This document shows positions 47,723-53,337 of a DNA stretch of 64,000 nt, piece by piece. A program made the position numbers and the translations under genes. The notes below the pieces were generated by a model, which saw only the letters and a program-made list of their open reading frames with translations, was not told the origin of the DNA and did no database searches. Within the stretch, counting starts at the first letter, position 1, and the number at the start of each line of letters is the position of its first letter. The DNA is from Escherichia coli (lineage in GTDB: Bacteria; Pseudomonadota; Gammaproteobacteria; Enterobacterales; Enterobacteriaceae): NCBI RefSeq assembly GCF_003334815.1, contig NZ_QOWO01000022.1. One strand, given 5' to 3'.

Positions 47723-48043
47723 ATGAAAATTAAACAGCATAAAGAAAAACTGGAGATTATAAGGGATATTATTCGAGAGACGCTGTTGGGTAATGCTGCT
47801 CTTATTGTTCTGGCAGCCATGGTTCCGGTTGTACTGGTGAAACCATGGGATTCGATGACATTTATTTTTATGGGGGCCGTGTGTGTTTCTTTTGCAGTCA
47901 TTCTGTTCTGGCTGGTTTATATAGTTTGTTTGTATATAGGAACGCTTGTAAAGAATATTTTTATAAGGATTTTTGCTTTTTCTATTTGGGCCCTTTCTGC
48001 TGAGGGGGCAATTATTTATAACATGATAAAGATATTATCATAG
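47723..48043 (+). CDS. Hypothetical small membrane protein (106 aa), AT-rich
   Basis: Plus-strand ORF with three hydrophobic segments between traE and rci. Confidence 0.35.
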   Translation: MKIKQHKEKLEIIRDIIRETLLGNAALIVLAAMVPVVLVKPWDSMTFIFMGAVCVSFAVILFWLVYIVCLYIGTLVKNIFIRIFAFSIWALSAEGAIIYNMIKILS

Positions 48044-48134: not shown

Positions 48135-48455
48135 TTATTTGGCATCCCTTATCTCGCCCATCAGCAGGCGGATACGCAGCCAGGTGTCATGATCCAGAAC
48201 AGGTGATGGTGTTACCATGCAAGCACAGTGCCCGGTGACGAGCGTATCAAGGAAGCGTTTTGCATCGCTGGCACTTTCATATTCACCAGTATGGATCAAC
48301 ATCCACCTTTGCCCCAACGCTGATTCGGTGTGAATTGGTTGCGAGAATGCGATTGTGTAAACGTCTTCAATTGTAACGATACGATTATTATCCGCAGTGG
48401 CTGCACGGGAGGATAAGTGTTTCATAAAGGGTCTCATAGCGTTAATTTTGAACAA
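48135..48455 (-). CDS. Hypothetical protein (106 aa) immediately downstream of rci
   Basis: ORF 12 nt after the rci stop, same strand; no motif. Confidence 0.35.
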   Translation of the reverse strand: MFKINAMRPFMKHLSSRAATADNNRIVTIEDVYTIAFSQPIHTESALGQRWMLIHTGEYESASDAKRFLDTLVTGHCACMVTPSPVLDHDTWLRIRLLMGEIRDAK

Positions 48456-48466
48456 AAATTATTTGT

Positions 48467-49636
48467 TCAGGAGGAGGATATGAAAATACTGTTCGCTTTT
48501 GTCATGAACTGGCTGTTTGTTAACGGACAAATCATGACCCGTTCATCAATGTTTGCGGGTAGCTCGCCTGGTGTGGGGACGCGTTCACCCCGCTGAGCAG
48601 CCTGGGCCAGTGCGCGCAGCAACAATACGCTGGCGTGAGATATTGCCAGTTCCCGGGTTTCAGCACGGCTTTCAAGGTCGAAATCGTGCAGTGTCACAAT
48701 GAACACTCCGTTTCTGTTTCTGACAGTTGCAGGGTAGGGAACAAAATAAGGGGAAATTTTGCTGGTCTGTTTACGCCTTGCATCGAGTTTACTGACCAGG
48801 TGATATGCCCGGAGATGTGTGTACCGTTTCAACATGTTCAGGGAGCGGTGACCGGAAATGGCTGCAATCTCCATAACGTTCAGTGTGCCGAGCTCGAACA
48901 AACGGCTGATGGCCTCATGGCGGAGATCGTGAAAATGCAGATTTTCTATTTTCAGATCCAGAAGAGTGGTACGCCAGGCGCTTTTGAAACCGGACGAGGT
49001 GTAACTGAACACATTGCCGTTTATCTGTTGTGGCAGAATTTGCAGGTAGTTACGTGCTTTCCGGGAGAGTGGGACATCGCGTGGTGAGCCATTTTTCGTT
49101 TCAGGAAGATGCGCCACGCCGTGCTGCAAATCGAGGTGTTCCCAGCGTAATGAGAGAATTTCTCCCTGGCGCATTGCTGTTTCCAGAGCCAGATGGAAGA
49201 TAACGTAGAGCTGCGGATTTTTGTCCCTGAAATAGCGGGAAAGGCGGCGTTCTTCACCAGAAGTCAGTCGGCGGTCGCGGCCATTACTGATTTTCGGTTT
49301 TCGGACCAGTTCAACAGGATTCATACGGCATGTTCCCCATTCCACACGGGCGATATTGAATAATGATGATAAAAGGGCAAGTTCAAGACGGACGGTATTT
49401 CCGGTGATTTGACGCCCTGTTCGTGGGTTAATTTGAGCTAAACGCTGATCCCGGTAACTGGCGATATCAATGGTAGTGATTTCATCCATATAGCGATCGG
49501 CCATAGGGTGACGTTTAATCACATTGACGCGATAAAACTCCTGCAGATGACCTTTTTTATGGACGGAAACAGTCTTCAGGTATTTGTCCAGTGCCCGGCT
49601 GAGGGACATTTTGCGAGTTTTGTTTTTTTGAAACAT
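48467..49636 (-). CDS. rci: Shufflon-specific tyrosine recombinase Rci
   Basis: Start [29 protein letters not shown] with a GGAAGG RBS; the longer track ORF would run into sfx site S1. Tyrosine-recombinase catalytic motifs ([17 protein letters not shown]). Adjacent to the sfx repeats. Confidence 0.85.
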
Positions 49637-49698
49637 ATCTGCCTTCCACGATAAAAACGGGGAAGGTAGGAGGCTGGATACAGAAATGCAATACTTTC

Positions 49699-49717
49699 GT
49701 GCCAATCCGGTGTCTGG
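49699..49717 (+). repeat. sfx recombination site S1 (gtgccaatccggtgtctgg)
   Basis: Exact 19-mer shared with S2; followed by an 81-codon open frame in the PilV fusion frame. Confidence 0.7.
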
Positions 49718-49985
49718 CGGTCAACTGAAATTAAATTCACAACGCAGACCTATAACATCGGAAAAAATATTCGTAATTTCAGACTTGGTGTCCATGCATA
49801 TTGTGCATGGACGTATCTTAATGGTTCTCCTTTCGGTGGTTTTCAGCAGGTTTATTCCGATAAAAATAATGTCTGGTATGTCAATAATTATGCGTGGGGT
49901 AATTATGAGTCAGGTGGAACGATATCTGTTACGTGTCTCAATATACCTGGGGCCGGTATTTAATTAAGCGTCAGGCAGTAGCCAG

Positions 49986-50004
49986 CGTGCCAATCCGGTG
50001 TCTG
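49986..50004 (+). repeat. sfx recombination site S2 (gtgccaatccggtgtctgg)
   Basis: Exact 19-mer; followed by a 79-codon open frame in the PilV fusion frame ending at TAA 50242-50244. Confidence 0.7.
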
Positions 50005-50250
50005 GAAGAATAATATCAGCGATGCACTGGTTTTTGATTATTCGGCCTGTTATGACGCAGAAGAAGACTCCAGAAAACCGGTTTATGCGAACTGGGGTAG
50101 TGGCTCAAACGGCTTTGCCGTCTGTGACGGCAAAGCAGGCTATGGTGCGGCAGGATTCAGAGCGTACAGAGGTAAACCGGGGTATTCGGGAAGCATGGTC
50201 TGGGTCAAAATACGTTGCTGTAAGTTAAAAGTTAATACGCCTTAAATGCA

Positions 50251-51615
50251 TCAGCTTGCTTTGACGATGTAGTTAAAGGCAATGTTTTTGGGGCGCATTT
50301 CCGTTGTGCTTCCCTGGGCCCAGTAAGGCATACCGCTGTGATGCCCTTTCAGCCATCCCCCACGCTCATGATAGACACCGGATTGATCGGCCTGATAACT
50401 CAGGAGATGTCTGTTCCGATCTCCATCCAGCCCACGTCCGTTGTCCCAGCCACGGATAAAAACACCGCGCAAATCCGGCAGCTTACACCCGGGATAAGCA
50501 CGGGCAAGCTGAGGATACCGGGAACATGAAAATGACTGCCCGTTCATCACCAGGTAGCCTTGTGGAGGGGTGGCTGATGGCCACGGTATAGGGCTTCCGA
50601 CAGGGTAGGATTCAAAACCTGCCCACATACCGGATTGGCACGAAAGTATGGCCCCTGTACTGGTGCGGCCTACAAGTCCGTCCGGTGAACACTTTGTGCC
50701 TGCCGTAGCTGTTTTATCAAGCTGTAAATACTCCCCGGTTGAAAGACGACCGTCAGACCGGACTGTACCACCACTGACTTTCCCCCCTTTGATTTCCCCG
50801 GTGGTTGTGATGCCTTTGCCATTAACCGCGCGTATCCACTGGCTGTCCGTCATGGTGAATCCACCACCATGTGTGATATTCATCCATCCCTTATTGTTTC
50901 TGGTGATTAGCCAGCCGTCTTCACTCGTAATATCACCTTTCAGTGTGGCACTCTGACCATTGATATTGCCGGTGTTGTTTATGTTATTCCCGCCCATATT
51001 TATTGCAGTATGCATCTGATTCAGTTCAGGACGACCTGCTACCTGAAAACGGTAGAGACGGTCACTTTCCTGCAGGTCATCACCGCTCATGACGACGGCG
51101 ATGTGACCTGTCGAACAGGTAAGTCCGTAGTCTCCCGGTTTATCTGTCCAGGCTCCGAATGCGCCTGTTGCCGTTCCGTTTTTGCTGATAAATCCACCCA
51201 GCCCCGGCAACTGACCCGCCACACTACGCAGCCCTTCTTCTTTGATTGTCTGCCCTCCAGTTGAGCAGGTCAGGGCTTCCAGACGCCCGGTGGTCTGGTT
51301 ACGGCGGATACCGGTGATATAACTCTGACCAAACGGAGAATGGTTAAACCCCTGTTTCAGATATCCCTGACGAATCAGATCATCAGCCGTGAAATTTGCC
51401 GGAAGGCTGCCGCTATGCAGACGGGCATTGTTGTCGGCAATATAGTTTCTGGCTGCGGTATTGTAGGCATCTGCATGATATGCAGCACTCTGGTAAAGCT
51501 GCTCATTCAGCCAGTTTTCAATTTCTGAATAAATCATTGGTGTGGCGATACCGATCACAATCAGTCCGGCCAGAATTTCAAACAGAACAAAACCTTTATC
51601 GTCGTCTTTTTGCAT
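50251..51615 (-). CDS. pilV: Thin-pilus minor pilin/adhesin PilV (current shufflon isoform)
   Basis: Start MQKDDDKGFVLFEILAGLIVIGIA is a type IV prepilin-like N-terminus; the track ORF begins further upstream inside pilU. C-terminal 130 aa lie within the invertible region. Confidence 0.8.
   Translation of the reverse strand: MQKDDDKGFVLFEILAGLIVIGIATPMIYSEIENWLNEQLYQSAAYHADAYNTAARNYIADNNARLHSGSLPANFTADDLIRQGYLKQGFNHSPFGQSYITGIRRNQTTGRLEALTCSTGGQTIKEEGLRSVAGQLPGLGGFISKNGTATGAFGAWTDKPGDYGLTCSTGHIAVVMSGDDLQESDRLYRFQVAGRPELNQMHTAINMGGNNINNTGNINGQSATLKGDITSEDGWLITRNNKGWMNITHGGGFTMTDSQWIRAVNGKGITTTGEIKGGKVSGGTVRSDGRLSTGEYLQLDKTATAGTKCSPDGLVGRTSTGAILSCQSGMWAGFESYPVGSPIPWPSATPPQGYLVMNGQSFSCSRYPQLARAYPGCKLPDLRGVFIRGWDNGRGLDGDRNRHLLSYQADQSGVYHERGGWLKGHHSGMPYWAQGSTTEMRPKNIAFNYIVKAS
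50371..50389 (-). repeat. sfx-like site S3 (degenerate; cgatcaatccggtgtctat on the pilV strand)
   Basis: 13-bp core caatccggtgtct conserved, flanks diverged; encodes DQSGVY inside the current PilV tail. Confidence 0.45.
50623..50641 (-). repeat. sfx site S4 at the end of the PilV constant region (gtgccaatccggtatgtgg on the pilV strand)
   Basis: Right arm gtgccaatccggt identical to S1/S2; encodes CQSGMW in the pilV frame. Confidence 0.65.
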
Positions 51616-51619
51616 GGTG

Positions 51620-52255
51620 TTACCCTCCGGTGTGAAAAATGGCACCAGGAAAAAAAGTGAAAATGTACAGTGATGCACAGATAAACGGACCAAATGGGAT
51701 AGCGGCCCCTGTATTACTGCGCGGGAACAGCGACATACAGACCATGGTGCCGGTGGCGGCAATACCGATGATCCACGGAGTGCTGTTGGCAGATGACCAC
51801 ATGGCCACACCTGCAATCAGAAACACGTCCCCCAGTCCCAGCGTCTCCACTCCCTTGCGGTATGAGGTGTAGCGCCTCAGGAGATATAACAGGAGAAACC
51901 AGAACAGAGCACAGGCAAGCGCAATAGCAGCATCGCCCTGCCATAAACGAAACGCCACACCCAGCATCAGGAATGTGAGGGTGAAGGGACGGGGAAGACG
52001 GCAGGAGGTTGCGTCAGTTAGTGTCATCAGTGTCATGCAGCCTGCCATCAGCAACAGAAAGCAAAGTCCGGTAATGTCTGTCCCCCGGATGATGTGCGTA
52101 ATGGTGGCGGTGAGTGCCAGAACAACACAGAGCAGGGAGAGGTGACGTGGAAGCCGGAGGGTATGCACCTGCATGAGATAATGTCCGGCCACTCTGATGG
52201 CAAGTAACTGTATGGTCAGCGTAGCGGAGATCACGAGTAAGATGATGAGGAACAT
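51620..52255 (-). CDS. pilU: Prepilin peptidase PilU
   Basis: 211-aa polytopic membrane protein; position between pilT and pilV. Confidence 0.7.
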   Translation of the reverse strand: MFLIILLVISATLTIQLLAIRVAGHYLMQVHTLRLPRHLSLLCVVLALTATITHIIRGTDITGLCFLLLMAGCMTLMTLTDATSCRLPRPFTLTFLMLGVAFRLWQGDAAIALACALFWFLLLYLLRRYTSYRKGVETLGLGDVFLIAGVAMWSSANSTPWIIGIAATGTMVCMSLFPRSNTGAAIPFGPFICASLYIFTFFPGAIFHTGG

Positions 52256-52273
52256 GGCTCGTATTCTCCGTTA

Positions 52274-52747
52274 TTAACGTCCCTGCATATATGCGGCATA
52301 AATCAGCCGGGCATATTTCATTCTGCGGTGAGTGTTATTTTTATTAAATCCGGCGTTGTAGCTACCGAGACACTCCCAGTTCACACCACACTGCTGAAAA
52401 TGCCGGGCAAGGATCCATGCACCTGTCTGTATATTCAGGCAAACATTACTGAGCAGTTCATTTTCACTTCGGATAATTCCCATTCTTTTCAGTCCGGGAA
52501 TATGTGTGGAATTAATCTGCATCAGGCCATAATCTGTGCTGATAATTTTTCCGCTGGCATTTCTGTTATGATTGATGGCCCGGGGATTCAGGCTGCTTTC
52601 TTTACGGGCAATTACTTTCAGTAGTCCGGGATCGATGGAGTAACGTTTTCCTGCCTGAATAAAGCAGCTATCCAGTGTGTTACTGTTTACGGCGGCAGTC
52701 GCCGGGAGACAGAATAAGAAAAGAGATGAGAGATAAAACCATTTCAT
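52274..52747 (-). CDS. pilT: Lytic transglycosylase PilT
   Basis: Start at MKWFYLSSLFLFCLPATAA (signal peptide). Transglycosylase SLT-like motifs (ARKESSLNPRAINHN, GLMQINSTH, YNAG). Confidence 0.7.
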   Translation of the reverse strand: MKWFYLSSLFLFCLPATAAVNSNTLDSCFIQAGKRYSIDPGLLKVIARKESSLNPRAINHNRNASGKIISTDYGLMQINSTHIPGLKRMGIIRSENELLSNVCLNIQTGAWILARHFQQCGVNWECLGSYNAGFNKNNTHRRMKYARLIYAAYMQGR

Positions 52748-52800
52748 GATTATGTGCTCCGGGAAACAGCACCCCGGAGGGAGTGCTGTGTGGCAGGGCA

Positions 52801-53337
52801 TTAGCTGTTGGTTTCCAGCTTGATATTGTTTTTATCGCTACTGCAGACGGTAACGGGATCCACCGTGTTCGGGGCTGTGTTCATAATTTTGGTAAATATG
52901 GACGAACTGCGCAGGCTGTTAATCAGCTCAACACAGTTTGTTTTAGGAACATTATTACTGGTGATAATGTAGCCATATTTGTCTGCTGTGGCAGCAATCG
53001 TGACATCACCACCCCATGCGTTTTTGGCTTTGTTGCCTCCTGCAATCATATCAGCAGGCAATGCACCGCTTTCCGTCAGGGTTTTGATATAATCCGTTCC
53101 GGTATATCTTCCCTGGAACTTGTATTGCTTCATTTTGGTTGCAATTGTCTGCAGGTTTTTCAGTTCGCGCTGGTTGTCACTGGAGGCCATTGTGCTGGAC
53201 ATCTGGCTCATCGCGAGCGCGACAACTATTGCGATGATAATCATTGCGCCGGCAATTTCTAATAATGTTAAACCTTTATCATCTTCTTTATCTTTTTTTA
53301 AAGAAAAATAAGAAGACAGACGTGCTCTGAAGTTCAT
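52801..53337 (-). CDS. pilS: Type IVb prepilin PilS (major thin-pilus subunit)
   Basis: Leader plus GLTLLEIAGAMIIIAIVVALA prepilin N-terminus; 178 aa. Confidence 0.8.
   Translation of the reverse strand: MNFRARLSSYFSLKKDKEDDKGLTLLEIAGAMIIIAIVVALAMSQMSSTMASSDNQRELKNLQTIATKMKQYKFQGRYTGTDYIKTLTESGALPADMIAGGNKAKNAWGGDVTIAATADKYGYIITSNNVPKTNCVELINSLRSSSIFTKIMNTAPNTVDPVTVCSSDKNNIKLETNS

Follow-up and report, generated by a model that had tools for sequence, protein, structure and literature searches.

Three sfx Sites and Three Alternative PilV Ends in a Very Probably Active Shufflon of an IncK2/Z Escherichia coli Plasmid

Since 1986-87 the shufflon has been a textbook case of multiple inversion, and the locus described here raises the question of how many alternative ends such a system can give to the mating-pilus adhesin PilV, through which crossover sites, and whether it still inverts. 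We analyzed a 64,000-nt stretch of Escherichia coli DNA (the window). Its 46-54 kb interval carries, on the minus strand, the distal part of a type IVb thin-pilus operon and then a recombinase gene, in the order major pilin, lytic transglycosylase, prepilin peptidase, pilV, and rci. The 3.3 kb from 48400 to 51700 (3301 nt) are 100% identical to dozens of deposited E. coli plasmids, and the plasmids that match are typed as IncK2/Z, MOBP, and MPF_I (for example, NZ_CP027600.1). The shufflon locus is already known, being annotated by PGAP and published in 2013 for pO26-CRL125 and pO111-CRL115. Our analysis leaves us highly confident that the interval is a working Rci/sfx shufflon with three sites and two segments, carried by a conjugative E. 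coli plasmid of the I-complex (IncK2/Z), and this shufflon very probably swaps the tip of PilV among three alternative ends. The features on which the argument rests are collected in Table 1.

Table 1. Positions of the shufflon sites, PilV tails, recombinase gene, and neighboring pil genes in the window
Feature	Position	Strand	Description
rci	48467-49636	-	Shufflon-specific tyrosine recombinase, 389 aa; R64 Rci similarity, Pfam, annotation
sfx1 left arm	49687-49698	+	tgcaatactttc
sfx1	49699-49717	+	Perfect site GTGCCAATCCGGTGTCTGG, rci-proximal
T1	49699-49963	+	Silent PilV C-terminal cassette; 81 codons after sfx, stop ending at 49963; predicted fusion product 412 aa
sfx2	49987-50005	+	Perfect site, identical to sfx1; left arm gcagtagccagc
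T2	49987-50245	+	Silent PilV C-terminal cassette; 79 codons after sfx, stop ending at 50245; predicted fusion product 410 aa
Pseudo-sfx ("sfx3")	50371-50389	-	CGATCAATCCGGTGTCTAT, in frame within T0
sfx4	50623-50641	-	Perfect site GTGCCAATCCGGTATGTGG, ends PilV constant region; left arm ggccatactttc
T0	50251-50641	-	Expressed PilV C-terminus, 130 aa including sfx-encoded CQSGMW; phage-tail-collar-type domain
Outer invertible unit	49699-50641		sfx1 to sfx4, 943 bp
Inner invertible segment	49987-50641		sfx2 to sfx4, 655 bp
pilV	50251-51615	-	454 aa
pilV constant region	50642-51615	-	974 nt (324 codons + 2 nt); Pfam Shufflon_N, PGAP
Upstream pil operon block	51620-53337	-	ORF list and annotation
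Prepilin peptidase	51620-52255	-	Upstream pil operon gene
Lytic transglycosylase	52274-52801 (as ORF)	-	Upstream pil operon gene
Major pilin	52801-53337	-	Upstream pil operon gene

The sites themselves were located by searching the whole 64 kb for the sfx consensus GTGCCAATCCGGTNNNTGG, with up to three mismatches allowed. This search returned three perfect sites, sfx1, sfx2, and sfx4, and even at three mismatches no further sfx appeared in the 64 kb. An exact match to the 16 specified bases has a computed chance expectation of ~3e-5 per 128 kb, and so the three clustered copies are not a product of chance. In an sfx site, a 7-bp core separates a left arm of 12 bp, which varies, from a right arm of 12 bp, which is conserved (PMC11852207, PMC9045228). 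In the window, the core GTGCCAA and the right arm TCCGGTNNNTGG are repeated in both orientations, with sfx1 and sfx2 on the plus strand and sfx4 on the opposite one, as is characteristic of a shufflon. The plus-strand copies can be extended to identical 20-mers starting at 49698 and 49986. We also considered whether the left arm of sfx1 (gcaatactttc, which is also how the constant region of R64 pilV ends) is a duplicated fragment of pilV, and rejected this reading because the similarity stops at 11 nt and the corresponding position of a sister plasmid reads agaaatgcaata.

The recombinase gene adjoins the invertible region and lies immediately downstream of pilV, which is the position of an Rci-family gene in a shufflon. 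Its product (WP_000486835.1, annotated as a site-specific integrase) shares 75% identity with R64 Rci over 373 aa, a stretch that takes in the motifs HxxR and RYTH as well as the C-terminal extension, and it matches the Pfam family Phage_integrase (E = 1.8e-24). By analogy with the literature on R64, pCT, and TP114, this protein would catalyze the sfx inversions at the locus, and the end carried by PilV would set recipient specificity in liquid mating.

On the other side of the invertible region, the constant part of PilV gave two matches to Shufflon_N (PF04917; E = 1e-61 and 5e-45). The family spans residues 34-329 of PilV, with CQSGMW encoded by sfx4 at the boundary, and PGAP labels the gene product as shufflon system pilus tip adhesin PilV. 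The reading of the interval as a PilV shufflon, with which the original prediction began, was thus borne out by the adjoining recombinase and by the constant region. The constant region, in phase 2 at its end, reads into its own sfx as G/TGC CAA TCC GGT, which encodes CQSG; we accordingly read the tail frames as G/TGC CAA TCC GGT NNN TGG. The tail that is currently joined to the constant region, T0, matches the Phage Tail Collar family (Collar, PF07484; E = 6.7e-12).

Two further tails follow the plus-strand sites. After the 19-mer, T1 and T2 remain free of stops for exactly the numbers of codons that the original prediction had given for two silent tails, and their frame agrees with that in which the constant part of pilV runs into its sfx, as is expected of shufflon cassettes; they are real alternative C-termini of PilV. 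The open reading frames that the ORF list reports here (49686-49967 and 49998-50228) lie in another frame (mod 3 = 0, versus 2 for the tails), as had also been foreseen. The T1 frame contains no in-frame start codon and the only ATG in the T2 frame is at 50195, from which we infer that both are silent cassettes expressed solely by fusion to pilV. A scan of 49400-50800 for promoters and terminators found none exceeding the shuffled expectation.

If the three sites are used as their orientations suggest, inversion between sfx4 and sfx2 would flip the inner segment, which bears the convergent tails T0 and T2, and inversion between sfx4 and sfx1 would flip the entire outer unit and bring T1 to pilV. 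Four DNA isomers would be formed, and they would encode three PilV proteins, of 454 aa (T0, collar-type), 412 aa (T1, R64-like), and 410 aa (T2).

We constructed the predicted isomers in silico and then sought them in public plasmids. The sfx1 x sfx4 isomer of 48400-51700 is an exact substring (3301/3301 nt) of CP057335.1, a plasmid of 119,787 bp. The same inverted orientation is present in CP057348, and the window orientation is present in the 119,787-bp sister records CP057341, CP057343, and CP057346 from the same study. The sfx2 x sfx4 isomer, in which 49987-50641 is flipped, is an exact substring of NZ_CP074980.1; CP027379.1 carries this isomer too, colinear and within a T1-bearing shufflon. 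Both inversions that had been predicted are therefore represented by natural isomers, in CP057335.1 and NZ_CP074980.1, with 0 mismatches. In both isomers the left arms stay fixed while the right arm and the tail relocate, which places the crossover within a short stretch with the 7-bp core inside it, as the literature describes for Rci. Natural records, which are consensus assemblies, thus show use of every perfect site and fusion of each of the three tails to pilV. Three of the four predicted DNA isomers were observed, and the fourth was absent from the six PLSDB records that express T1. We conclude that DNA inversion from sfx to sfx, the defining property of a shufflon, occurs at this locus.

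How often each orientation is found was assessed by counting junctions in databases; these censuses rest on consensus assemblies and not on read-level data. In PLSDB, the junction of the constant region with T0 was present at >=99% identity in 86 records, versus 6 records for the junction with T1. The junction with T2 was found at 100% identity in 0 records of the close lineage, whereas about 10 plasmids carry it in a sister lineage that has a different allele of the constant region. Among RefSeq complete E. coli genomes, the counts were 101 for T0, 0 for T1, and 1 for T2. Overall, the T0 orientation accounts for ~93-99% of close relatives, and public assemblies are heavily skewed to the orientation seen in the window. 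The skew may mean that switching is slow or that T0 is favored, for instance by selection during culture; weaker left arms or shared ancestry may also lie behind it.

A skew of this size is also what would be seen if the locus were largely a frozen relic, with intact sites at which inversion is very rare, so that PilV is in effect fixed in the T0 form and the isomers are historical or arose by RecA-mediated exchange between inverted repeats of 20-30 nt. The outer sites do lie within a 30-nt, 90% inverted repeat, and a relative that has no rci has locked T0. We nevertheless regard a frozen locus as unlikely. The rci gene is intact and conserved, and the two orientations coexist among the same-study 119,787-bp records described above, which are 100% identical over 3301 nt; this coexistence implies that switching was recent. 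The position of the crossovers, in the interval with the core, is what Rci would give. For RecA, 18-27 nt of homology is very short, and taken together with the position of the crossovers it makes RecA-mediated inversion unlikely. An active three-site shufflon, with Rci as its probable recombinase, accounts for these observations.

The number of sites in this shufflon was a point on which our results departed from the original prediction, which had counted four and had given the identical plus-strand 19-mers as lying at 49699 and 49986. The identity of the two 19-mers held, with 49986 off by one relative to 49699, and three of the four sites (49699, 49987, and 50623) proved to be perfect. The fourth, at 50371, matches sfx at 13/19 positions. 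If 50371-50389 were a working sfx, the shufflon would be nested, and recombination would yield chimeras of the N-terminal part of T0 (T0N) with T1 or T2, as well as a short isoform from which 50390-50622 is dropped. The pseudo-site has an exact 13-mer, CAATCCGGTGTCT, in common with sfx1 and sfx2, in the same frame and in the correct orientation; an exact 13-mer is expected by computation ~0.002 times per 128 kb, and a chance origin of this identity is unlikely. Rci homologues, moreover, tolerate some variation in their sites (PMC11852207).

However, the mismatches in the pseudo-site fall where sfx sites do not vary. Its core, CGATCAA, agrees with GTGCCAA at 3/7 positions and differs at 4/7, and its right arm, TCCGGTGTCTAT, has lost the terminal TGG of the conserved arm and ends in TAT. 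Both elements are invariant in all known sfx, the core being the same in R64, IncK2, IncI2, and the present locus. A Shigella sonnei IncI-gamma/K1 plasmid that has lost both rci and the entire shufflon still carries the identical 19-mer. The pseudo-site also lies within one continuous tail-collar-type domain, and the DQS that it encodes is conserved in collar-type tails of Salmonella. T0 is homologous over its full length, on both flanks of the pseudo-site, to the C-termini of enterobacterial phage tail-fibre proteins, and likewise to "tail fiber protein" cassettes in Salmonella.

The products of recombination at the pseudo-site were sought in public records. Among 413 T0-bearing PLSDB records, the T0N-T2 junction was found in none (0/413) and the T0N-T1 junction in no true case. 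CP027379.1, the single T0N-T1 match at >=80%, at first resembled a recombinant at this site; it was rejected because the match is assembled from two pieces that are not colinear in the record, which is an ordinary sfx2 x sfx4 isomer. When the DNA junction of the constant region with the C-terminal part of T0 (T0C, the "drop" form) was used as a query, the matches listed were all native two-piece arrangements, with the pieces 252 bp apart on one strand, which made this query uninformative. A search with the junction peptide found zero proteins that join the constant region to T0C, which is a weak test, as full-length PilV was also unlisted.

We treat 50371-50389 as a pseudo-site within the T0 coding sequence and not as a working crossover site, and we consider a nested shufflon with four sites to be very unlikely. 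Of the several PilV isoforms that had been predicted, the three proteins listed above stand, and the forms that keep or drop 50390-50622 are unsupported, with zero junctions at the pseudo-site in the 413 PLSDB records. There is a similarly slim chance that the pseudo-site is a secondary Rci site of low efficiency that rarely recombines with sfx1 or sfx2. If it is, it would produce chimeric adhesins (the N-terminal part of the collar-type tail joined to T1 or T2) or a truncated tail, and it would add a second, slower layer of PilV diversification. The pseudo-site could also be the footprint of the capture of a phage tail-fibre module into the shufflon.

The least probable reading, marginally behind the last, is the 2013 view of a single invertible segment with two C-termini, in which the 943-bp T0/T1 flip operates alone and T2 and sfx2 are inert: Venturini et al. 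described one invertible fragment and annotated the T1 and T0 ends alone, with no T2 entry in their Table S1 (PMC3817090), and in PLSDB the close lineage expresses T0 and T1 and never T2, but sfx2 is perfect and identical to sfx1, T2 is in frame and stop-free, the sfx2 x sfx4 isomer of the window exists exactly in NZ_CP074980.1 and recurs in the T1-bearing shufflon of CP027379.1, and T2 is expressed by sister plasmids that lack T1.

A shufflon of three sites and three tails can therefore be set beside those already described. The "unique shufflon" of the IncZ plasmids pO26-CRL125 and pO111-CRL115 (Venturini et al., 2013; PMC3817090) is the same locus. In NC_022996.1 and NC_022992.1, T1 lies at the equivalent position, on the equivalent strand, with 99.5% identity over 218 nt, which fits the arrangement in the window, and the rci, T1-end, T0-end, and pilV N-terminus features of Table S1 correspond one-to-one with those that we found. 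What that description does not contain is the third perfect sfx (49987), the third in-frame tail (T2), and the natural sfx2 x sfx4 isomer. T2 and sfx2 are functional, and the published description of two C-termini should therefore read three. The addition of sfx2 and T2 is a small, correct refinement of the 2013 description and the sole new point of this analysis, with an exact natural isomer behind it.

R64 (IncI1; NC_005014), the prototype of the Rci/sfx system, resembles the window in the consensus of the core and right arm, the CQSGxW frame, and the order pilV, shufflon, rci. It contains seven perfect sfx sites with the same consensus and reading frame as those of the window. The two differ in scale, with 7 sites, 4 segments, and 7 tails over 1.94 kb in R64 and 3 sites, 2 segments, and 3 tails over 0.94 kb in the window. 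T1 is identical to one of the R64 tails at 68/77 positions (88%), whereas the collar-type tail T0 and T2 have no R64 counterpart. In the isomer present in the window, unlike R64, T1 is a cassette with one ORF between directly oriented sites.

Closer in plasmid background are the IncK2 shufflons (Seiffert et al., 2017; PMC5350095) and that of the IncK plasmid pCT, which share with the window the plasmid complex and the 7-bp core. The number of sites in IncK2 shufflons ranges from 2 to 8 among near-identical backbones (PMC5350095), and the gain and loss of shufflon segments are documented (PMC5430464). The repeat variants of IncK2 and pCT are tcg, atc, gtg, and ttg, whereas the variable triplets at the perfect sites of the window are GTC (twice) and ATG. 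The pilV/rci switches of Salmonella Typhi SPI-7 and S. Hadar ICESe4 resemble the window in having few sites; compared by description only, a single segment with two ends is reported for them, and the window has an extra cassette. According to Venturini et al., the rci gene of this locus is closest to that of ICESe4, with 92% nucleotide identity (PMC3817090). A fusion of PilV with a phage tail collar under programmed inversion has been described in CP084655.1 (Milman et al., 2023; PMC9881135). This fusion and the T0 isoform both combine Shufflon_N (PF04917) with Collar (PF07484), a likeness of architecture.

The value of these results as a discovery is small, as the locus was already annotated and published. 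They do bear on how its relatives are compared, in that assemblies of such plasmids may legitimately differ by inversions of 655 bp or 943 bp and by the presence or absence of a 288-bp cassette, and differences of this kind are not evolutionary distance. IncK2/Z plasmids are common in Shiga toxin-producing E. coli (STEC; O26, O111) and carry resistance genes. That the dominant PilV isoform has a receptor-binding end of the phage-tail-collar type is relevant to predicting the range of recipients that these plasmids may reach.

The T1 cassette, one of the two silent alternative PilV C-terminal cassettes, is a 288 bp indel (window 49699-49986) whose exact borders are the direct repeats formed by sfx1 and sfx2. 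Once the cassette is taken out of the window, two relatives that lack T1, NZ_CP075699.1 and CP027378.1, are colinear with it over 766 nt at 99.6% and 98.4% identity. Strain 2013C-4404 is represented by two records, one with T1 (CP027379.1) and one without it (CP027378.1). The indel possibly arose by excision across the direct sfx repeats; the Rci recombinase of R64, the prototype IncI1 shufflon, reportedly disfavors excision between sites in this arrangement.

The outer sites, sfx1 and sfx4, lie within a 30 nt inverted repeat of 90% identity (window 49688-49717 and 50623-50652), which extends around them because the left arm of sfx1 (tgcaatactttc) resembles that of sfx4 (ggccatactttc). Conservation of the left arms of sfx sites is not expected. 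The end of the pilV constant region in R64 (ggcaatactttc) also shares 11 of 12 nt (gcaatactttc) with the left arm of sfx1 in the window. The likeness of the two arms might tune the rate of recombination between sfx1 and sfx4.

The convergent T2 and T0 tails are only 5 nt apart (window 50246-50250), as the T2 stop codon ends at 50245 and the T0 stop codon occupies 50251-50253. We found no terminator-like structure above shuffled expectation between pilV and rci, and so the expression of rci may depend on read-through across the shufflon. Two small ORFs that lie between rci and traE are both conserved among related plasmids. One encodes a hydrophobic product of 106 aa, and the other, also of 106 aa, is annotated as a 96 aa hypothetical protein (WP_000681898.1).

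Small ORFs in the interval between rci and traE
Feature	Coordinates	Strand
Small ORF	47723-48043	+
Small ORF	48135-48455	-

In plasmid pMRY16-002_3 (NZ_AP017613.1), which is 99.9% identical, a frameshift splits pilV, and the T0 end carries its own annotation, "tail fiber protein"; the frameshift is either a sequencing error or the mark of a pseudogene. In an IncI-gamma/K1 record from Shigella sonnei (NZ_OP038271.1), the end of pilV is of the T0 tail-collar type, and a traE-like gene comes immediately after it. The plasmid has neither rci nor further cassettes, and its pilV is therefore a T0 isoform locked in nature. The query joining the pilV constant region to T0 matched 59 Shigella records.

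Close relatives deposited as public assemblies share the T0 orientation of the window in more than 90% of cases. IncI1 shufflons have been reported to rearrange constantly, and in comparison with them this uniformity is unusual. Slow Rci, selection, or shared ancestry may account for the skew.
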